The position numbers and the translations under genes were made by a program. A stretch of DNA of 16,278 nucleotides from a virus (taxonomy: Duplodnaviria; Heunggongvirae; Uroviricota; Caudoviricetes). The notes below the pieces were generated by a model that had not been told where the DNA came from, did no database searches, and saw only the letters and a list, made by a program, of their open reading frames with translations. The DNA is taken from the IMG/VR virus record IMGVR_UViG_2563366911_000006, one strand, 5' to 3'. Below are positions 2,504 through 16,278 of this stretch, one piece after another. How positions within the stretch are numbered: the stretch's first letter is position 1; every line of letters starts with the position of its first letter.

Positions 2504-3304
2504 ATGAAATTTCCAAAAACGCCCGTACAGGGGCAGGGCTTCGTTCGGCCTGAAAACCAGAATCTGCAAAATTTTGGTGAAATTATCCCGGTTATTTCCG
2601 GCGTTATTGGCGGGCGTGAAACCAATATTGTTAGTGCCAGAGCGTTGCATAAGGCGTTAGGTGTAGGGCGCGTTTTCCGTTCGTGGATCAAGGGGCGCAT
2701 TGAAGAATACGGCTTCACGGAAGGCGTGGATTATGAGGTTGTTGAATATTTGAGCCGACCCGATCCGGTGAGCGCAAAATCTCGCCAGCAAACAGCTCTT
2801 GAGTACATCATCACCGTGAACATGGCAAAAGAACTGGCGATGGTCGAACACACCGAACAGGGCCGTGCCGTTCGTCAGTACTTCATCAAATGCGAGGAGG
2901 AGCTACACAAGGTAGCGCCAGTGCGTTCCGCAGCGTTACGCCGGGAACTGAAAGCCCGTATCACCGTTGCCAGCTACTTTAAGCCGATGTGTGCCGCGCT
3001 GGAGGCGTACCGGGCTGAACTGGGTAAAAACACGTTCCAGCACCACTACACCACGGAAGCCAATATGCTGGCGCGTATCGTGCTGGGTGGCATGACTGCA
3101 AAACAGTGGGCACAGGCGAACGGCATTACAGGCGAACCACGCGACCACATGAGCACGTTGCAGCTTGAGCACCTTTCTTACCTTGAGCAGAGCAATATCA
3201 CGCTGATTGAGTTAGGCCTGGACTACCACCAGCGGAAAGCTGAATTAATTCGTCTTTCGCAGCGTTGGTTAGCCCGTCGCATGGAGGAAAACAGCCATGT
3301 GTAA
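2504..3304 (+). CDS. Phage antirepressor-like protein (AntA/Rha-type N-terminal domain)
   Basis: 266 aa, AGGAG Shine-Dalgarno 7 nt upstream. N-terminal segment ARALHKALGVGRVFRSWIKGRIEEYGFTEGVDYEV resembles the AntA/Rha antirepressor DNA-binding domain. C-terminal half not assigned. Confidence 0.75.
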   Translation: MKFPKTPVQGQGFVRPENQNLQNFGEIIPVISGVIGGRETNIVSARALHKALGVGRVFRSWIKGRIEEYGFTEGVDYEVVEYLSRPDPVSAKSRQQTALEYIITVNMAKELAMVEHTEQGRAVRQYFIKCEEELHKVAPVRSAALRRELKARITVASYFKPMCAALEAYRAELGKNTFQHHYTTEANMLARIVLGGMTAKQWAQANGITGEPRDHMSTLQLEHLSYLEQSNITLIELGLDYHQRKAELIRLSQRWLARRMEENSHV

Positions 3305-3976
3305 CGCTCTGACCGTTACAAAAAGAGAAAGCGCCCCGTTGCCGGAGCGCCTTTGTGAACGAATAGCCTACTGCGCCATATTGCTTACTGTCTACGAGGC
3401 AGATTATAGCGTTGTGGTCGCACAGAGTGAAGGCGCTGATCACCGTTACTACAGCACGCCAGAAATGCAGAATATTTTGCTGCAAAATGTCGTTGGTCAC
3501 GCTGTCCGGAAAGCAAAAAATTTTGCTGGTGGCGCGACTGATGCGATTTTGTCAGGTCGCAAGGTGATGATCAATCTGATGTCTAATTTCGTTCTGGATA
3601 AAACAAAGGCGACCGCAGAGGGCCACCAGTGGGAAAGCTACACACTTGAACACATCGCCAACAATGCCAGATTTGCGGCTGGTGGGCAATGTGATCAGTG
3701 TGCTGGCTTGCTGGTGGGCTATTCCTGCTCTTTAACATTGCCATGCCGCGATGTTTTCCAGGTATGCGACCCCATTTTTGTGCGCCTGTACTCTTTAAGG
3801 AATTTCTCAAGGATAAACGCACAGGGCGCGAATCTGTCTGACTCATATTCGTACGCTATCTTTCTGCGCTGTCTTTTCCGTGCCGGTGATGGTGTATTGG
3901 TCGATTCTTTGTTGGTCATTCTGTGTACCTGTAAAGCAATGCGCCGGAGTTCCTCACACCACGGCGATGATAGTTA

Positions 3977-4282
3977 TTATTCTGATTCTTTGGCCTTGCG
4001 GCGCTGGAGTTCTTCACGTGCGACGGTGACGAGCTGCCCGATCTCCTCGACAGCTTTGACTCCGATTTTTTCCACCTGCGCCAGTGCATTGAGCGAAGAA
4101 ACCAGGGGATTTTCTCCGCTTCCTTCTGCCTGGCGGCGGGCGATCTCACCACGCATGGCGGTTACTATGAATCCGGCGTTGCTTTCGCCGTCCAGTTTTA
4201 CGGATTCCATGCCTTCAAAAGCATCATGTGGGATACGAATTGAAATCTGTTTTGATTTGTCGTTGATAGTGTTTTTTGCCAT
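3977..4282 (-). CDS. Putative ribbon-helix-helix DNA-binding regulator
   Basis: 101 aa from ATG at 4282 (minus strand) with AGGAGA Shine-Dalgarno. N-terminus KQISIRIPHDAFEGMESVKL...FIVTAMRGEIARRQ fits a beta-strand/helix/helix RHH fold. Divergent from the rightward operon. The opposite-strand frame here reads as Ser/Arg-rich junk. Confidence 0.7.
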   Translation of the reverse strand: MAKNTINDKSKQISIRIPHDAFEGMESVKLDGESNAGFIVTAMRGEIARRQAEGSGENPLVSSLNALAQVEKIGVKAVEEIGQLVTVAREELQRRKAKESE

Positions 4283-4469
4283 GTGCATTCTCCTAAACAA
4301 AAGATGTGATTCAGTATACACAAAAAAGAATCACAAAAAATACTTGACCTGTGATTCAGTTAAATTTAATTTAAATCACACCTCAGTAAGAGGATATAAA
4401 CGACAACGCCCCGAACTGTTTGCGGCAGTAGCGGGGCGTCTAACCAAACCGTTAAATGAGGTAACGATT
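4283..4469. promoter_or_regulatory. Divergent control region with operator-like repeats and a leader hairpin
   Basis: Two 11-bp direct repeats TGTGATTCAGT (4305-4315, 4350-4360), each with an inverted partner GAATCACA/AATCACA (4328-4335, 4374-4380). Candidate rightward promoter TTGACC (4345-4350) with a TAATTT-type -10. Candidate leftward -10 TATACT (minus strand, 4313-4318). GC hairpin ACGCCCCG-N18-CGGGGCGT (4406-4439) in the operon leader. Confidence 0.5.
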
Positions 4470-4835
4470 ATGGCTGGGGCACAGCATACCCAAACTCACC
4501 CTAAATTTATATACACCTTCCTTGCGGTGCACCGTGATTGCATGGCTGACGGTAAAAACACTGTTCATGTAGCCGCCGATACGCTGGTTGATGCCTGCGA
4601 GATGCTCAATGACATGGGCTATATCTCGGCAACATGGAAAGGGCGCGAAGAAAACACGTTGTTTATTCAGAAATGCGAAAACAATTTTATCTGGCGTTTT
4701 ATCGCCCTGAGTACGGCACAACCGCGCGTGATTCACATCGAGGCCACCAGCGAACAGGAAGCACGCCAGCAATCTCCTGATGGCTGCGTGATGGTATTCG
4801 CTGCCCGTATTCGCCAGGAGGTGGAGCATGTGTAA
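4470..4835 (+). CDS. Hypothetical satellite-operon protein (possibly Icd-like)
   Basis: 121 aa, GAGGT Shine-Dalgarno 8 nt upstream of ATG 4470. It is the only protein-like part of the 512-aa ORF-track frame. Family assignment is from memory and uncertain. Confidence 0.65.
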   Translation: MAGAQHTQTHPKFIYTFLAVHRDCMADGKNTVHVAADTLVDACEMLNDMGYISATWKGREENTLFIQKCENNFIWRFIALSTAQPRVIHIEATSEQEARQQSPDGCVMVFAARIRQEVEHV

Positions 4836-5052
4836 TGCAACATGGCCTGATGCAGCGGTAGACGCTATCAAAACGCTGATGGATTCACTTATTGAGATTT
4901 CTGCTATCGCTGGTGTGGCGCATAAACACGCAGCCAGAGAATCAGAATGCATCTCCCATTATTTAGCATTTGTGCAGCTGAAAGCCGATCAGGCACTGGA
5001 TAAGGCCGGAAAAATTATCATGGCTGATGTACAGGAGGTGCACCATGCATAA
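4828..5052 (+). CDS. Hypothetical small protein
   Basis: 74 aa. Start overlaps upstream stop (ATGTGTAA), consistent with translational coupling. Confidence 0.5.
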   Translation: MCNATWPDAAVDAIKTLMDSLIEISAIAGVAHKHAARESECISHYLAFVQLKADQALDKAGKIIMADVQEVHHA

Positions 5053-5833: not shown

Positions 5834-6124
5834 ATGAAAAGGAAAAATTCTGGCTTTACTGCCAGCGGTCTCTCTCGGCCTGAAATCAGACACGGAGATA
5901 TTTACCGCGACACCAGACGTGGGGGACGAGTGGTTATTCGTCACGTTACGCCAGGCAATATCACCTACCGCCGTGAGGCTTACGAATATGACTGCGTAAT
6001 GCCGCGCCGTCAGTTTGAGCGTGATTTTATTCTGGTGGAAAACAAACAACAGGCAGTGGCGAGACGTGCAGCCACGAATATTAAAAAAATCCGGGCAATG
6101 TTGGTTGCGGGAGGTAAGAAGTGA
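5834..6124 (+). CDS. Hypothetical small basic protein
   Basis: 96 aa, starts 4 nt after the previous stop. Its stop overlaps the GTG start of the primase (GTGA). Confidence 0.6.
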   Translation: MKRKNSGFTASGLSRPEIRHGDIYRDTRRGGRVVIRHVTPGNITYRREAYEYDCVMPRRQFERDFILVENKQQAVARRAATNIKKIRAMLVAGGKK

Positions 6125-7926
6125 AAAACGCACCGAATTTAAAATATCAGCCGAAGGATAAATTCACCGAGGTAATCATTTTTGCCGGGACGGATGCTTA
6201 CGCCCATGCTCAACACTGGATTGAAAGCGAAGGACGAAAACACGGCGATAACGTGCCTCCTGTTTACCTGGGGCCAAAGCAACTGGCAGACCTGGCGAAT
6301 ATCCGCATTGTCGACGATGAACGCCGCTTTGCGCGTGTCTATCTCGCGGGGGAGATAGAGCCAATCCAGATCAATGCTATTGCTGAAAAGCTGGCGCTGG
6401 CTGGTGTACAGGACGCGAAATTATACAAAGGTATCACCGACCGGGAGCCGGAAAACTGGCGCGACTACCTGCAACGGATCCGCGAACAGGCAGAGAGTGG
6501 GGAAGTTTCAGCGATGAAATTAGCCACAAAAAATATTGACCTATCTAGGCCAGCACTAAATCAGATGGGAGCCAGCCAGAGAGGGGAAGTGTTACTTGAA
6601 TATTATGGAAGAGCACTGGCTATAAATGATGATTCTGATGTAGTTCACCATTACAACGGAATTGTCTGGGTGCCTGTATCTGATAAGGAACTCCAGCGGT
6701 CTATGGCGAAGATTTTTATTGATGCTGGAATCAGTTATTCGCAAAACGCCATTAAATTTGCCGTAGACACAATGAAATTGAGCCTGCCTGTTATGGGCGG
6801 GGCAGACAGGAATCTTATTGGATTCAGTAACGGGGTATTTGATACCCGGACGGGAAATTTTCGGGAGCATAACAAAAATGACTGGTTGTTAAATGCCAGT
6901 GAATTACCGTTCAGCCCACCAGCAGAGGGGGAAACGCTGGCAACACATGCGCCGAATTTCTGGAAGTGGCTGCGTCGTTCGGTGGCAGATAATGATCGTA
7001 AAGCTGATCGCGTACTGGCGGCATTATTCATGGTGCTGGCGAACCGGTACGACTGGCAGTTATTCCTTGAGGTAACAGGCCCAGGCGGAAGCGGTAAAAG
7101 TGTGATGGCTGAGATTTGTACCATGCTGGCGGGTAAGGCAAACACAGTATCGGCAAGCATGAAGGCTCTGGAAGACGCAAGGGAACGCGCGTTAGTAGTT
7201 GGCTTTTCGCTGATTATCATGCCGGATATGACTCGCTACGCTGGCGATGGTGCAGGAATTAAGGCAATTACTGGCGGCGACAAGGTGGCAATTGATCCGA
7301 AACATAAAGCCCCCTACTCCACACGTATTCCGGCAGTAGTGCTTGCGGTAAACAATAACGCCATGTCATTCAGTGACCGAAGCGGGGGGATCTCGCGTCG
7401 TAGGGTGATATTTAATTTCTCTGAGGTCGTACCGGAGAACGAACGCGATCCCATGCTGGCGGAAAAGATAGAAGGCGAACTGGCGGTAGTGATTCGCCAT
7501 TTGCTAACACGATTTACCGACCAGGACGAAGCTAAAAGACTACTTTATGAGCAGCAAAAATCAGAAGAAGCGCTGTTGATAAAGCGCGAAGGTGATTCAC
7601 TGGTGGACTTTTGCGGCTATCTGATGTCGTTGGTTAAATGTGAAGGAATGATGGTGGGCAATGCGGAAATAGTGCCATTTAGCCCGAGGCGATACCTGTA
7701 TCATGCTTATTTAGCCTATATGTCAGCGCATGGCCTGGGAAAACCAGTATCACTGACACGCTTTGGTACTGATATGCCAGGAGCTATGGCGGAATACGGA
7801 AAGGAGTATAAGCGGGCTAAATGCACTAAAGGCCCGGATAAAGGGCGAGTGATAACAAATGTTCTGTTAGATGATGATGCTGATGGCTGGTTGCCAGCAG
7901 CTACAGGGATTAACGACAGAACATAA
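6121..7926 (+). CDS. Replication primase/helicase, P4 alpha-type C-terminal family (P-loop NTPase)
   Basis: 601 aa, GTG start with GGAGG Shine-Dalgarno. Walker A motif TGPGGSGKS near aa 316 (about nt 7066-7092). Overall resemblance to the P4-family primase C-terminal/helicase region. Followed directly by iterons. Confidence 0.88.
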   Translation: MKNAPNLKYQPKDKFTEVIIFAGTDAYAHAQHWIESEGRKHGDNVPPVYLGPKQLADLANIRIVDDERRFARVYLAGEIEPIQINAIAEKLALAGVQDAKLYKGITDREPENWRDYLQRIREQAESGEVSAMKLATKNIDLSRPALNQMGASQRGEVLLEYYGRALAINDDSDVVHHYNGIVWVPVSDKELQRSMAKIFIDAGISYSQNAIKFAVDTMKLSLPVMGGADRNLIGFSNGVFDTRTGNFREHNKNDWLLNASELPFSPPAEGETLATHAPNFWKWLRRSVADNDRKADRVLAALFMVLANRYDWQLFLEVTGPGGSGKSVMAEICTMLAGKANTVSASMKALEDARERALVVGFSLIIMPDMTRYAGDGAGIKAITGGDKVAIDPKHKAPYSTRIPAVVLAVNNNAMSFSDRSGGISRRRVIFNFSEVVPENERDPMLAEKIEGELAVVIRHLLTRFTDQDEAKRLLYEQQKSEEALLIKREGDSLVDFCGYLMSLVKCEGMMVGNAEIVPFSPRRYLYHAYLAYMSAHGLGKPVSLTRFGTDMPGAMAEYGKEYKRAKCTKGPDKGRVITNVLLDDDADGWLPAATGINDRT

Positions 7927-8301: not shown

Positions 8302-8310
8302 GGCAAAGCA
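8302..8310. repeat. IS10 target-site duplication, left copy (GGCAAAGCA)
   Basis: 9-bp sequence identical to 9640-9648, directly flanking the IS10 ends. Confidence 0.9.
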
Positions 8311-8356
8311 CTGATGAATCCCCTAATGATTTTGGTAAAAATCATTAAGTTAAGGT

Positions 8357-8425
8357 GGATACACATCTTGTCATATGATCAAATGGTTTCGCGAAAAATC
8401 AATAATCAGACAACAAGATGTGCGA
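8357..8425 (-). ncRNA. IS10 RNA-OUT antisense RNA (position inferred)
   Basis: Placed by offset from the IS10 outside end using textbook IS10 organisation. Imperfect inverted repeat CATCTTGTC (8364-8372) / GACAACAAGATG (8409-8420) fits the RNA-OUT stem overlapping the transposase start. Confidence 0.45.
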
Positions 8426-9626
8426 ACTCGATATTTTACACGACTCTCTTTACCAATTCTGCCCCGAATTACACTTAAAACGACTCAACAGCTTAACGTT
8501 GGCTTGCCACGCATTACTTGACTGTAAAACTCTCACTCTTACCGAACTTGGCCGTAACCTGCCAACCAAAGCGAGAACAAAACATAACATCAAACGAATC
8601 GACCGATTGTTAGGTAATCGTCACCTCCACAAAGAGCGACTCGCTGTATACCGTTGGCATGCTAGCTTTATCTGTTCGGGCAATACGATGCCCATTGTAC
8701 TTGTTGACTGGTCTGATATTCGTGAGCAAAAACGACTTATGGTATTGCGAGCTTCAGTCGCACTACACGGTCGTTCTGTTACTCTTTATGAGAAAGCGTT
8801 CCCGCTTTCAGAGCAATGTTCAAAGAAAGCTCATGACCAATTTCTAGCCGACCTTGCGAGCATTCTACCGAGTAACACCACACCGCTCATTGTCAGTGAT
8901 GCTGGCTTTAAAGTGCCATGGTATAAATCCGTTGAGAAGCTGGGTTGGTACTGGTTAAGTCGAGTAAGAGGAAAAGTACAATATGCAGACCTAGGAGCGG
9001 AAAACTGGAAACCTATCAGCAACTTACATGATATGTCATCTAGTCACTCAAAGACTTTAGGCTATAAGAGGCTGACTAAAAGCAATCCAATCTCATGCCA
9101 AATTCTATTGTATAAATCTCGCTCTAAAGGCCGAAAAAATCAGCGCTCGACACGGACTCATTGTCACCACCCGTCACCTAAAATCTACTCAGCGTCGGCA
9201 AAGGAGCCATGGATTCTAGCAACTAACTTACCTGTTGAAATTCGAACACCCAAACAACTTGTTAATATCTATTCGAAGCGAATGCAGATTGAAGAAACCT
9301 TCCGAGACTTGAAAAGTCCTGCCTACGGACTAGGCCTACGCCATAGCCGAACGAGCAGCTCAGAGCGTTTTGATATCATGCTGCTAATCGCCCTGATGCT
9401 TCAACTAACATGTTGGCTTGCGGGCGTTCATGCTCAGAAACAAGGTTGGGACAAGCACTTCCAGGCTAACACAGTCAGAAATCGAAACGTACTCTCAACA
9501 GTTCGCTTAGGCATGGAAGTTTTGCGGCATTCTGGCTACACAATAACAAGGGAAGACTCACTCGTGGCTGCAACCCTGCTTACTCAAAATCTATTCACAC
9601 ATGGTTACGTTTTGGGGAAATTATGA
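8418..9626 (+). CDS. IS10 transposase
   Basis: 402-aa ORF MCELDILHDSLYQFCPELHLKRLNSLTLACHALLDCKTLTLTELGRNLPTKARTKHNIKRIDRLLGN... recognised as the IS10/Tn10 transposase. Full length, intact frame. Confidence 0.95.
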   Translation: MCELDILHDSLYQFCPELHLKRLNSLTLACHALLDCKTLTLTELGRNLPTKARTKHNIKRIDRLLGNRHLHKERLAVYRWHASFICSGNTMPIVLVDWSDIREQKRLMVLRASVALHGRSVTLYEKAFPLSEQCSKKAHDQFLADLASILPSNTTPLIVSDAGFKVPWYKSVEKLGWYWLSRVRGKVQYADLGAENWKPISNLHDMSSSHSKTLGYKRLTKSNPISCQILLYKSRSKGRKNQRSTRTHCHHPSPKIYSASAKEPWILATNLPVEIRTPKQLVNIYSKRMQIEETFRDLKSPAYGLGLRHSRTSSSERFDIMLLIALMLQLTCWLAGVHAQKQGWDKHFQANTVRNRNVLSTVRLGMEVLRHSGYTITREDSLVAATLLTQNLFTHGYVLGKL

Positions 9627-9639
9627 GGGGATCTCTCAG

Positions 9640-9648
9640 GGCAAAGCA
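9640..9648. repeat. IS10 target-site duplication, right copy (GGCAAAGCA)
   Basis: Identical to 8302-8310. Its last base is the A of the ATG of the next gene. Confidence 0.9.
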
Positions 9649-10178
9649 TGACTAAGCTGACCATTAACAGAAAACCAAAAGGTATTTACGGCACGCCGCA
9701 GAAAACGACGCAGGCGGCACAGGAGCAGGATAAAACCACATCGGCGCATAAAGTGATGCCCGGTAACCAGAAAGCGCAGCAGAAGCCTACAGGGGCGACA
9801 CCGTGGCGGCATATGACCAAACGCCAGCGCAAAAACCGCAGGCGCGTTAACCGCCTCACTGAGTTGTGGCCTGACTTATTCAGCCGGGAAGCACTGAAGC
9901 CGCTTAAGGTGGGGATATTCGACGACCTGATGCAGGATCTCGCCGCCAGGGGGCTGGCATTCGGGCCAGGGGCATTGCGTGCGACGCTGGCATCTTATGC
10001 GCAGTGTCCGCGCTATTACCGCGCCTTAATGGCTGGTGGGGTACGCTACGACCTGAAAGGCCAGCCGTGCGGCGAGGTGACACCACAGGAACAACAGGAC
10101 GCAGAAACGCGGCTGGTGGCGCTGAATGAGAAGCGCAAACGCCAGTGCCGGGCAGCAAAGGAGACAATAGGCGCATGA
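9648..10178 (+). CDS. ProQ/FinO-domain protein (RNA chaperone-like)
   Basis: 176 aa, GC-rich. Segment PLKVGIFDDLMQDL...LRATLASYAQCPRYYRALMAGGVRYDLKGQPCGEVTPQEQ closely parallels the conserved ProQ/FinO core (PLKIGIF..DL...R.DL.G.PCGE). IS10 lies immediately upstream. Confidence 0.72.
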   Translation: MTKLTINRKPKGIYGTPQKTTQAAQEQDKTTSAHKVMPGNQKAQQKPTGATPWRHMTKRQRKNRRRVNRLTELWPDLFSREALKPLKVGIFDDLMQDLAARGLAFGPGALRATLASYAQCPRYYRALMAGGVRYDLKGQPCGEVTPQEQQDAETRLVALNEKRKRQCRAAKETIGA

Positions 10179-14289: not shown

Positions 14290-16278
14290 GTGTTCCTAAT
14301 ATCTGACCTTAGCGACTTGCGTGCACTTTCGGAATCCGCAGAGCTAGAGTTCAAGCTAGCTCAAGGGAAAGACGGACAAGGTAAATTACCTGATGATTTC
14401 TGGCCAACCTATAGTGCTATGGCAAACTGCCGTGGTGGGTATGTGGTTTTAGGTATTAGAGAGAAAAAAGGGGAATTTTCCGTTGCGGGTATCTCAGATA
14501 TAAATACCGTTAAAAAGCAGCTTTTCGACCTCGTGAGCAACAAGAAAAAAGTTAACGTTAATCTTCTTACCAATAACTCTGTCCAAACAGTATCCTTACA
14601 GGGAAAGGATATTCTTGTCATTGAAATACCAATCGCACGACGAGAACAGAAACCTGTTTATTTGAATAATCAACCCATGTCAGAAACATGGTTTCGTATG
14701 CACGACGGTGATCATCGTTGTTCAGAAGAACAAGTTCGTCGCATGATGGCCGAACAGGTTGAAGAAAGCCGCGACAACCGTATCGTACAAAACTTCGACA
14801 TGAACGATATTAACCTAGAAAGCTTGTTGGCTTACAGAAATCTACTATCTGCTTCAAACCCGACACATCCAGCTCTCGAACTAGATAACTTTGCTTTCCT
14901 ACGAAGTATTGGGGGATATAGAAAAGACCGGCAAACAGGTTTGGAAGGCATGACCTTAGCTGGCATTCTCATGTTTGGAACATGGGAAGCGATACAAGAT
15001 GTAGCCCCAAATTATTTTGTGGATTACCAAGAACGCCCTGAAGCAAGAACTGAAAGAAGATGGGTAGATAGACTATGTCCCGATGGGACTTGGTCAGGTA
15101 ACGTGTTTGACTTTTACAGACGAACCTATCGAAAACTAATTGCTGACTTAAAAGTCCCTTTTGAGCTTAAAGAAGGTATCCGACAGGACGATACTCAGAT
15201 ACACACAGCATTGCGTGAAGCGCTGGTAAATACCTTAGTTCATGCCGATTATACTGGACGAATCTCCATCATGGTTGTGAAACGACCAGATCTATTTGGC
15301 TTCCGTAATCCAGGTTTGATGCGCGTGCCACCAGAACAAGCAATCAAAGGATATGAAAGCGATTGTCGAAACCGACTGATGCATCAAATGTTTTTAATTA
15401 TTGGTGCTGGTGAACGATCAGGCTCAGGGATCCCTAAAATATTTAGTGGCTGGAAATGGGCTAACTGGCGTATGCCAAGGCTATATGAAAAAACAGAACC
15501 AGAACAAACACTTTTGGAGCTATCTATTGGCAACCTCGTATCAGAAGAAATTGCCAATCTTCTCCATACAAAATTTGGCGACAAAGTAGACCATCTCAGT
15601 GAGCTTGAGCGCAGTATTGTTATAACTGCAGCCGTAGAAAAGTGGATTGACCATGAACGGGCTTGTCAACTAACTAGCCTTCACTCTCGTGAGGTAACTT
15701 TAGCCTTACCCCGCCTTGTAAGCGGCGGATTCTTAGTCCCTCATGGTGAGAAGAGGAATAAATCATATACATTACCGGGGCAGGATCTTCCATCTCCAGA
15801 GGAAGTTTTTGGTGTAAATCCGTTATCAACAGACAACTCATTCGCAAACGAAGCTCAAATCATCACGGATAGCGATAATTTGATCACGGATAACGAAGAA
15901 TTGATCACGGATAACGAAAAAGAACGAGATGCTTTAGGTCGTTTTATAACCGAGAAACTACCTTTTCCTTATGTGGATAACCTTGAGTGCCTTTCACCAA
16001 CCTTAAGGCAACGGTTAGAAGACATATCTGCATTAGCCAGAGAAAAGAAACGACTTTCCAACGAAACCATGGACGAAATCATACTTAAGCTTTGCTCAGG
16101 CCATTATATGCCGCTTAGTGTTATTGCAAAGTTAATGGCCCGAACACCACAGAACCTACGAGAAAAACAGCTCGTTCCATTAGTAAGATCCGGAAAAATA
16201 AGACTGGCATTTCCTCATGCGAGAAGACACAAACGACAGGGATATATTTCTTGTGAACAAGTACAAGTTAACAACTAA
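14290..16278 (+). CDS. Schlafen/AlbA_2-domain protein with GHKL-like ATPase-type region (COG2865-like) and extended C-terminus
   Basis: 662 aa, GTG start with GGAGG upstream. N-terminal SESAELEFK signature; LAGILMFG segment; LREALVNTLVHADY...FRNPG...ERSGSGIPKIF matching the HATPase_c_4-like core of COG2865 proteins; C-terminal HTH-like segments. Family call from memory of motifs. Ends exactly at the window end. Confidence 0.8.
   Translation: MFLISDLSDLRALSESAELEFKLAQGKDGQGKLPDDFWPTYSAMANCRGGYVVLGIREKKGEFSVAGISDINTVKKQLFDLVSNKKKVNVNLLTNNSVQTVSLQGKDILVIEIPIARREQKPVYLNNQPMSETWFRMHDGDHRCSEEQVRRMMAEQVEESRDNRIVQNFDMNDINLESLLAYRNLLSASNPTHPALELDNFAFLRSIGGYRKDRQTGLEGMTLAGILMFGTWEAIQDVAPNYFVDYQERPEARTERRWVDRLCPDGTWSGNVFDFYRRTYRKLIADLKVPFELKEGIRQDDTQIHTALREALVNTLVHADYTGRISIMVVKRPDLFGFRNPGLMRVPPEQAIKGYESDCRNRLMHQMFLIIGAGERSGSGIPKIFSGWKWANWRMPRLYEKTEPEQTLLELSIGNLVSEEIANLLHTKFGDKVDHLSELERSIVITAAVEKWIDHERACQLTSLHSREVTLALPRLVSGGFLVPHGEKRNKSYTLPGQDLPSPEEVFGVNPLSTDNSFANEAQIITDSDNLITDNEELITDNEKERDALGRFITEKLPFPYVDNLECLSPTLRQRLEDISALAREKKRLSNETMDEIILKLCSGHYMPLSVIAKLMARTPQNLREKQLVPLVRSGKIRLAFPHARRHKRQGYISCEQVQVNN

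Follow-up and report, generated by a model that had tools for sequence, protein, structure and literature searches.

In P4, the eta gene holds a constitutive internal promoter, the transcripts of which are terminated through CI RNA (PMC10111431, summarising Forti et al. 1999). Kil is a truncated form of Eta; full-length Eta is made only from the upstream late promoter, where it is coupled to the alpA homologue, and Eta translation prevents termination (PMC10111431). In the P4 sequence, the frame is open from ATGs that overlap the vis stop codon to the end of kil. The present analysis concerns the control region of an island of the phage-inducible chromosomal island (PICI) type, contained in a stretch of 16,278 nucleotides (virus record IMGVR_UViG_2563366911_000006; the whole of this stretch is referred to below as the window). 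The region studied is the 187-bp spacer (4283-4469) between a leftward gene (3977-4282, minus strand), which encodes a candidate ribbon-helix-helix (RHH) repressor, and a rightward operon that begins with an Icd-like gene homologous to P4 kil.

The nested eta/kil arrangement of P4 recurs here. The Kil homologue is the first gene after a predicted internal promoter, this promoter lies inside a longer frame that is in frame with the Kil homologue and is coupled upstream, starting at the stop of an operon of the alpA/vis type, and control at the RNA level would again act at the leader; small open reading frames (ORFs) and a primase gene follow downstream. There are also differences: no C4-family CI RNA and no isrK-type leader are found, the RNA proposed here lies on the opposite strand and is cis-antisense, and a repressor gene and its operators are embedded antisense in the long frame, whereas the P4 annotation shows none there. 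Our reading, to which we assign a probability of about 0.6, is that immunity of a Gram-negative PICI-type satellite is governed from this region, a hub of three layers with the layout of the P4 left-operon control region but with different parts. This reading draws on the sequence features and their conservation, on co-variation between protein and binding box, on a strand-specific RNA structure related to SymR of Escherichia coli, and on conservation of the long frame; binding of the repressor, transcription of the antisense RNA, translation of the long frame and every regulatory outcome are predictions from these. Overall, the operators are well supported by comparison of sequences, a GC-rich hairpin of the leader is best assigned to an antisense RNA, the frame is eta-like, and the whole appears to be a variant of P4-type immunity.

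The immI region of P22 holds the RHH repressors Mnt and Arc, the sar antisense RNA and ant. Like the scheme proposed here, it has a divergent RHH repressor, an operator lying over both promoters and a short antisense RNA that covers a ribosome site. However, its gene content differs and it is not known to have a nested long frame, and no sequence relation between the two is evident beyond an Arc-like strand motif. The immI region of P1 holds the c4 RNA, icd and ant, with the sense transcript as the source of C4 and downstream sites as its targets. Its likeness to the proposed scheme lies in a first gene of the Icd type, the translation of which is blocked by a small RNA with polar effects downstream, and its difference in the lack of a C4 match here. 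In sum, the architecture is P4-like, the predicted RNA is SymR-like, and the logic of repressor plus antisense RNA resembles that of P22 immI. The master repressors Stl/Rpr of Gram-positive PICIs also form a divergent regulatory pair between the integrase and replication sides (PMC6092414), although the protein fold is unrelated to that of the RHH protein here. The founding paper on Gram-negative PICIs (2018) called a global repressor's existence there unclear (PMC6092414), and our literature search found no paper on this control region, on a SymR-like RNA in satellites or on an RHH repressor in Gram-negative PICIs, and no transcript map of the present element.

The seemingly intergenic spacer lies inside a conserved long open frame that the initial annotation missed. 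This eta-like frame comprises 512 codons (3297-4835, plus strand). Its ATG at 3297 overlaps the stop (3302-3304) of antA, the gene for an AntA-type protein (2504-3304), within the sequence ATGTGTAA, and the frame then runs antisense through the gene for a 66-aa protein and the RHH gene, through both predicted operators and the leader, and into the Kil-like gene. Between 3297 and 4469 it contains no stop, compared with 22 and 24 stops in the other two plus-strand frames. Related loci were fetched via relatives of the leftward RHH protein (15 from species-representative genomes, 11 from exact-protein look-ups and 80 metagenomic) and collapse to 67 distinct spacers, which are the set for the counts out of 67 given below. 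In 50 of these 67 regions no stop interrupts the spacer in the frame of the Icd-like gene, compared with 2 and 0 regions for the two remaining frames, and the mean number of stops per spacer is 1.1, compared with 5.7 and 5.0. Spacers with a length of 1 mod 3 likewise number 50 of the 67, most of them belonging to these same regions, and come in nine sizes from 187 to 211. In 49 of 67, the stretch antisense to the repressor gene has no stop in this frame either, and the start of the frame overlaps or abuts the stop of an upstream same-strand gene in most loci.

The long frame might instead be a by-product, in which stops are absent through the constraints on the RHH gene, the operators and the RNA. 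Wobble positions coincide in the overlap with the RHH gene, the RHH protein has no Tyr and few His or Gln, a run of about 100 stop-free codons there has by our estimate a chance of about 1 in 5, and the peptide looks non-globular. Nevertheless, it is the AT-rich spacer that is so consistently open in one frame only, spacer lengths shift in threes over nine size classes, the frame extends back to a start coupled with the stop of the upstream gene, and the same arrangement has a demonstrated role in P4. We consider a by-product unlikely, although it fares better than any of the other alternatives discussed below.

The gene at the end of the long frame (4470-4835, plus strand) encodes a protein of 121 aa that matches the NCBIfam model phage_ICD_like with 81 bits and PHROG 6196/1743. 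It is similar to P4 Kil in a BLASTP comparison (E 3e-5), and its relative in L020, one of the related loci, is 48% identical to P4 Kil (E 1e-13). Most relatives are 63-72 aa long, the difference being an insertion of about 50 aa in the window protein; this insertion splits the Kil-like N-terminus (residues 7-22) from the C-terminus (73-121). In the near-identical island L001, the RefSeq start of the identical gene is the internal ATG at 4614, which cuts off the conserved ribosome site and the leader. The Shine-Dalgarno sequence GAGG (4458-4461, plus strand) lies in the loop of a hairpin CGTTA/TAACG (4450-4466), the stem of which co-varies, being CATTA/TAATG in the related locus L003.

The initial annotation reported a GC-rich hairpin at 4406-4439 with 18 nt between its arms, and this hairpin is indeed present (ACGCCCCG, 4406-4413; CGGGGCGT, 4432-4439) and is extended by an inner ACTG/CAGT stem. 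However, the structure is selected on the minus strand. Most relatives have a stem GAAGCCC/GGGCCTC with a position that is mismatched (A·C) when read on the plus strand but pairs as G·U on the minus strand. Among 23 loci, 483 of 504 pairs are standard on the minus strand (55 of them G·U) and 434 of 504 on the plus strand (6 G·U), the mean fold energies are -34.3 and -23.1 kcal/mol, respectively, and the minus strand is the more stable in all 23. The same asymmetry holds over 57 distinct sequences (standard pairs make up 95.7% on the minus strand, 173 of them G·U, and 82.8% on the plus strand, 5 of them G·U) and in the window itself (-31.5 kcal/mol, z -4.56, on the minus strand; -25.4 kcal/mol, z -2.27, on the plus strand). 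Compensatory changes are seen in 13 of 23 pairs, and none of 500 shuffles reaches the scores observed for the 57 distinct sequences.

The predicted product is a SymR-like cis-antisense RNA of about 80 nt with two hairpins, running from 4475 to 4396 on the minus strand. Hairpin 1 (4442-4474) is complementary to the ribosome site and the start codon of the Icd-like gene, and its loop contains the anti-Shine-Dalgarno CCUC. It is joined by an invariant linker, UGGUNAGA, which is mentioned in no paper that we found, to hairpin 2 (4405-4440), which is the GC hairpin and is followed by a U-rich tail, GUCGUUUAU. The candidate -10 element of its promoter, TATGCT (4483-4488, minus strand), lies inside codons 5-7 of the first rightward gene and 7 nt upstream of an invariant A at 4475. 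The form TAnnnT is found in 47 of 47 distinct sequences and is kept over differing overlapped codons (QHT, NHT, NRT, NIT, KST and others). The middle codon ends in T in all 46 regions examined at the codon level, which supplies the essential -11 A, and in a sister class (19 of the 46) TGn always precedes the element, making it an extended -10.

The main competing explanation for the hairpin is the one first proposed, namely that it is a cis-acting attenuator or processing site of the rightward mRNA and gives a stable sense-strand immunity RNA like P4 CI or P1 C4. The analogy with RNA-based immunity in P4 is fair as regards control at the RNA level because the first gene is a P4 Kil homologue, and the hairpin has the position of P4 cI, upstream of that homologue. 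The plus strand also folds, as noted above, and a conserved UCUNACCA comes after the hairpin. However, the window has no match to the P4 CI/P1 C4 family (RF01695) or to the isrK type (RF01394) at gathering score or at E<=10, whereas P4 itself scores 74.9 (C4) and 60.8 (isrK) bits in the same models, and no T-run follows the hairpin on the plus strand. In addition, the conserved ACCA is accounted for as the partner of the antisense RNA 5' AGCCA in minus-strand hairpin 1, and G·U pairs and stability both favour the minus strand. A cis-acting role is thus improbable. The best reading places the GC hairpin in a SymR-like cis-antisense RNA gene, because of the strand-specific structure, the in-register relation to SymR and the lack of a C4 or isrK match.

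Other roles of the hairpin were considered and set aside. Pairing of its loop in trans with downstream sites, in the style of C4/CI, gave no consistent pattern across loci by eye. Two further readings of the hairpin together with CUCUAACCA, one as an rrn-type boxB/boxA antiterminator and one as a substrate of RNase P that resembles a tRNA and ends in a 3' ACCA, were both dropped because the ACCA pairs with the 5' end of the antisense RNA and because of the strand asymmetry. With Rfam, nothing was found at curated thresholds in the leader of the window or of seven related loci; a weak match to Plasmid_R1162 (19 bits) was treated as noise.

The antisense RNA is probably a distant relative of E. 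coli SymR, as judged by reciprocal covariance-model matches. The Rfam symR model (RF01809) finds the homologous place, on the same strand and over its full length, in the related loci L020, L019 and L013 with 33.3, 30.9 and 29.9 bits, about half of its gathering threshold of 61 bits. In the other direction, a covariance model built from 21 related sequences with SymR left out (model R1) finds the annotated K-12 symR exactly and over its full length (32.5 bits, E 6e-6 in 58 kb); it has no match in P4. The matches are in register, start to start. K-12 symR starts 3 nt behind the symE start codon (symR at 2836, start codon at 2839-2841 in locus L029), and the same 3-nt geometry is found here, with the antisense RNA starting at 4475 and the ATG at 4470-4472. 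Both are RNAs of about 77-80 nt with two hairpins, they share the blocks AGYCAUAA..., UUGUGRUUAG and GUGUU...GCAC, with an identity to SymR of up to 68% (median 58%), and both show a -10 element, 7 nt and an A, with the promoter inside the target ORF (symE in K-12). A comparison of the identity with shuffled sequences was uninformative, some shuffles reaching 0.65, and was not used. The two differ in target, which is a Kil/Icd-like protein here and the AbrB-fold SymE in the case of SymR, in the upstream sites, which are RHH operators here and, as read from the sequence, a LexA box in K-12, and in that the RNAs described here score under the Rfam gathering threshold.

Matches of model R1 in 100 sources are all on the RHH strand, except for a second copy in L010 (7021-7099, minus strand, 85.7 bits). 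Another second copy away from the RHH-linked one is found in L040 (3175-3253, plus strand, 69.5 bits), downstream of the RHH gene. Speculatively, read-through past the weak U-rich tail (4396-4305, minus strand) would enter the operators and the RHH gene, and the antisense promoter might then be an extra feed of repressor expression, somewhat like lambda PRE for cI.

The two 11-bp direct repeats described in the initial annotation are present as stated: TGTGATTCAGT occurs at 4305-4315 and at 4350-4360, an offset of 45 bp. That each is half of a larger palindrome also stands, with a correction to the partner sequence. The first has perfect arms TGTGATTC and GAATCACA (4305-4312 and 4328-4335), while the right arm of the second is AAATCACA (4373-4380) and not GAATCACA. 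The form common to both is a 31-bp TGTGATT-N17-AATCACA (4305-4335 and 4350-4380) with no mismatch in either, and the chance expectation, even with 2 mismatches allowed, is 0.14. TGTGATT occurs 8 times in the 16.3-kb window, 4 of them inside the 76 bp of the two palindromes; the others (1887, 2173, 5723, 14055) are single and unpaired and were treated as chance.

These palindromes are predicted operators whose layout is conserved in related loci. O1 (4305-4335) consists of the boxes TGTGATTCAGT (4305-4315, plus strand) and TGTGATTCTTT (4325-4335, minus strand) and encloses the candidate -10, TATACT (4313-4318, minus strand), and the start of the leftward RHH promoter. This -10 lacks a good -35, but TAnnnT is kept at its position in related loci, and the distance from its end to the RHH start codon is most commonly 30 nt there, as it is in the window. 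O2 (4350-4380), with the boxes TGTGATTCAGT (4350-4360, plus strand) and TGTGATTTAAA (4370-4380, minus strand), spans the spacer, the -10 and the predicted start (about 4379) of the rightward promoter, which is read as TTGACC (4344-4349, plus strand), a 17-nt spacer and TAATTT (4367-4372). A strict consensus scan of the window called neither divergent promoter; the support for both comes from positional conservation. The best sigma-70-like site begins at spacer position 59-63 in 61 of 67 distinct regions, and TTGACG/A/C is found in 44 of 67. The claim that the repeats overlap promoter elements for both divergent transcripts is therefore borne out by the conservation of these elements in related loci. 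Outside the antisense overlap, the predicted rightward transcript begins with a small 5'-terminal hairpin, CCUC-AGUAA-GAGG (4381-4393, plus strand), and analogous hairpins were seen by eye in related loci. The Edwardsiella islands L017 and L018 have a fifth box, TGTGATTCAG, in the leader just upstream of the GC hairpin; at about 100 nt upstream of the Icd-like ATG, this box is downstream of the rightward start and adjoins the 3' end of the antisense RNA.

The protein expected to bind these boxes is the 101-aa product of the leftward gene, which belongs to the YlcI/YnfO family (NCBIfam model YlcI_YnfO_N). Its N-terminal part (residues ~10-50) reads as an Arc/Mnt-like RHH domain, and a long helix (59-100) makes up the C-terminal part. 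An AlphaFold model gives the order strand-helix-helix over the N-terminal ~45 residues, followed by the long helix. The best Pfam match, PSK_trans_fac, is under its cut-off (E 0.0024-0.026), and hhalign aligns the protein with Arc at E 0.005 over 23 columns in the expected register, with residues 11-15 on the DNA-reading strand of Arc (QFNLRWP). No curated RHH family was significant, and Foldseek with the whole monomer against the PDB gave no match; the assignment of the fold is good but not proven. The C-terminal part (residues 45-86) has a weak PDB sequence match to the helix-hairpin-helix region of Hef (1x2i, E 0.01), with the pattern L..VE.IG.KA.EEI. A helix-hairpin-helix-like C-terminus was rejected, as AlphaFold predicts one continuous helix (59-100) instead. 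Conceivably, this helix forms a coiled-coil bridging two dimers over the 24-bp spacing of the boxes.

The layout is the same in the 67 distinct regions, namely the repressor start codon, a box pair round the leftward TAnnnT, the TTGACx -35, a box pair round the rightward -10 and then the leader, and it is conserved in Escherichia, Edwardsiella, Serratia, Klebsiella, Enterobacter, Erwinia, Xenorhabdus, Photorhabdus and others. The box sequence itself is not conserved and changes with residues 11-15 of the RHH protein. The strand motif (K/R)QISIRIP goes with TGTGATT in 13 of 13 cases, QLTTVRVP with GTGTGTT or TGTGTTT in 18 of 19, QMTTIRVP with TGTATAT in 7 of 8 and QQLNARFP with GGTATTC in 4 of 4. 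An E. coli protein (P0024) with 82% overall identity to the window RHH protein has another strand motif and another box, whereas Edwardsiella, Serratia and Klebsiella proteins with 65-72% identity (72% for Edwardsiella) have the same motif as the window and keep TGTGATTCAGT. Because of these two comparisons, the association does not appear to be simply a matter of overall relatedness or host. The repeats are thus very likely binding sites for the neighbouring RHH protein. As for the operators, the repressor/operator arrangement that the initial annotation expected is supported at the level of sequence, by the co-variation of box and strand motif across genera.

Could the boxes be bound by something other than the RHH protein, such as host CRP, AlpA or an AntA-type protein? 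TGTGA and TCACA resemble CRP half-sites, and AlpA and AntA are encoded just upstream. However, the gap from TGTGA to TCACA is 21 bp here, compared with 6 bp in a CRP site. The boxes also differ among islands in the same host and track the RHH strand motif rather than the host or the upstream genes, and islands with the same box have different upstream sets (AlpA/Bro-N or AntA). Another binder is accordingly a still weaker proposition than a cis-acting hairpin. The least credible alternative of all is that the minus-strand structure acts as single-stranded DNA, for instance as a priming or replication signal for the island primase, since, although DNA hairpins tolerate G·T pairs and a D5-type primase is among the island's products, the structure keeps a constant register with the ribosome site and start codon, its 5' end has a conserved -10 element 7 nt upstream, and it is similar to an experimentally known RNA, SymR.

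Several points weigh against the three-layer hub. Box and strand motif lie next to each other on the DNA, and their joint inheritance through recombination is therefore one contributor to the association. For the class to which the window belongs, the antisense promoter is weak on paper (TATGCT, no TG, a -35 with 3 of 6 positions), and conservation of its -10 cannot be fully separated from that of the QHT codons. As a terminator, the U-rich tail is not of textbook form and was not called by a terminator scan, and the window sequence itself has no Rfam symR match at E<=10. Continuity of the long frame is lost in 17 of 67 regions, and the frame is therefore not essential everywhere. In addition, the predicted long-frame peptide looks like an antisense read-out rather than a folded protein, and its N-terminal 227 aa have no Pfam or PHROG match. 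Since the peptide seems not to be folded and has no family match, these last points suggest that, if the long frame is translated, it is the act of translation that matters and not the product.

A mechanism in three layers can be proposed for the hub. In the protein layer, the RHH protein would bind the four boxes, that is, the two 31-bp palindromes. Binding at O2, between the -35 and the start of the rightward promoter, would shut off the operon of kil-like and replication genes, and binding at O1, over the repressor's own -10 and start, would provide autoregulation. In the RNA layer, a promoter within the opening codons of the kil-like gene would drive leftward synthesis of the RNA of about 80 nt. 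This RNA, whose complementarity to almost the entire 5' leader is complete and takes in the ribosome site and the AUG, would block translation of leaky rightward transcripts, and the untranslated leader RNA would terminate early, for which P1 icd and P4 kil are precedents, leaving the downstream primase genes silenced. In the bypass layer, transcripts of the upstream int/alpA/antA operon would carry the long frame from the antA stop onwards, crossing the repressor gene in antisense and then the operators and the leader, up to and including the kil-like gene. A ribosome engaged on this frame would have no need of the masked ribosome site and would keep the transcript from terminating, as translation of Eta does in P4.

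The setting of the control region agrees with a satellite element, as the initial annotation had supposed. The 16.3-kb window is an island at the tRNA-Thr (thrW) site adjoining proA in E. coli, this site having been read in L001. It contains genes for an integrase (int, 1-1254) and AlpA (2197-2424) upstream of antA, two leftward genes (3719-3919 and 3977-4282, minus strand), and the rightward operon (plus strand) with the Icd-like gene, small ORFs, DUF4222 and a D5-type primase (6121-7926). The gene for the 66-aa protein (3719-3919, minus strand) is downstream of the RHH gene, matches PHROG 21027 with 107.5 bits and is annotated in L001. Integrase, AlpA and primase genes occur in conserved order at a tRNA site without phage structural genes, and islands with the same gene set have been classed as Gram-negative PICIs (PMC13612085, PMC11773190). 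Partial or fuller matches to a 1-kb query (3900-4900) were found in 1302 of 5426 complete E. coli genomes, and at least 80% of the query was covered in 51 of the 5426.

Proteins of the ProQ/FinO family bind structured antisense RNAs. The island encodes its own member of this RNA-binding family (9648-10178; PF04352, 82.6 bits), which is therefore a candidate partner of the SymR-like RNA. Directly upstream of its ATG (9648) is a complete IS10 of 1329 bp (8311-9639) with a 9-bp target duplication, GGCAAAGCA (8302-8310 and 9640-9648), which contains RNA-OUT (8356-8425, minus strand, 98.8 bits) and the transposase gene (8418-9626) and is missing from L001. Through this IS10, the ProQ/PerC genes may have become uncoupled from the replication operon. 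L001 also differs in its right-end cargo (14290-16278 in the window): GapS1 is present there, and the window has an ORF for a defence-like protein with Schlafen AlbA_2 and HATPase_c_4 domains, which runs off the window end. The Rfam int-alpA RNA motif (RF02996) scores at or above threshold between int and alpA in four related islands (L017, 6143-6211; L019, 5461-5529; L007, 4504-4572; L005, 6345-6413) and was not found in the window at gathering score. An isrN RNA (RF01396, 152.7 bits) is present at 1907-2049 of L005, a related-island contig labelled Martelella alba; this label is odd for an enterobacterial-type element and may reflect contamination or mislabelling.

It is quite possible, and we put this forward tentatively, that the region represents a three-layer hub of a kind not described for any satellite, consisting of an RHH master repressor, a SymR-family antisense RNA and a translated bypass frame. 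If so, the RHH repressor would be type-specific, its operators falling into at least half a dozen specificity classes that behave as immunity types, the SymR-family RNA would guard a toxic first gene of the Kil type, and the translated bypass frame would traverse the repressor gene in antisense and also its own operators. A corollary would be that SymR/SymE of K-12 carries a domesticated copy of the satellite leader cassette, re-wired to LexA. Gram-negative PICIs would thereby gain a candidate repressor, with predicted operators and specificity classes. SymR, which has so far been treated as a single-locus antisense RNA, appears to have a larger family around it, whose members guard genes of the Kil/Icd type in mobile islands, and this suggests an origin for SymR itself. 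As a case of overlapping coding, a conserved frame that runs antisense through a repressor gene and its operators would be an unusually clear sign of selection on translation, and the long frame may serve as a test case for the idea, derived from P4, that it is the ribosomes and not the peptide that carry the signal.

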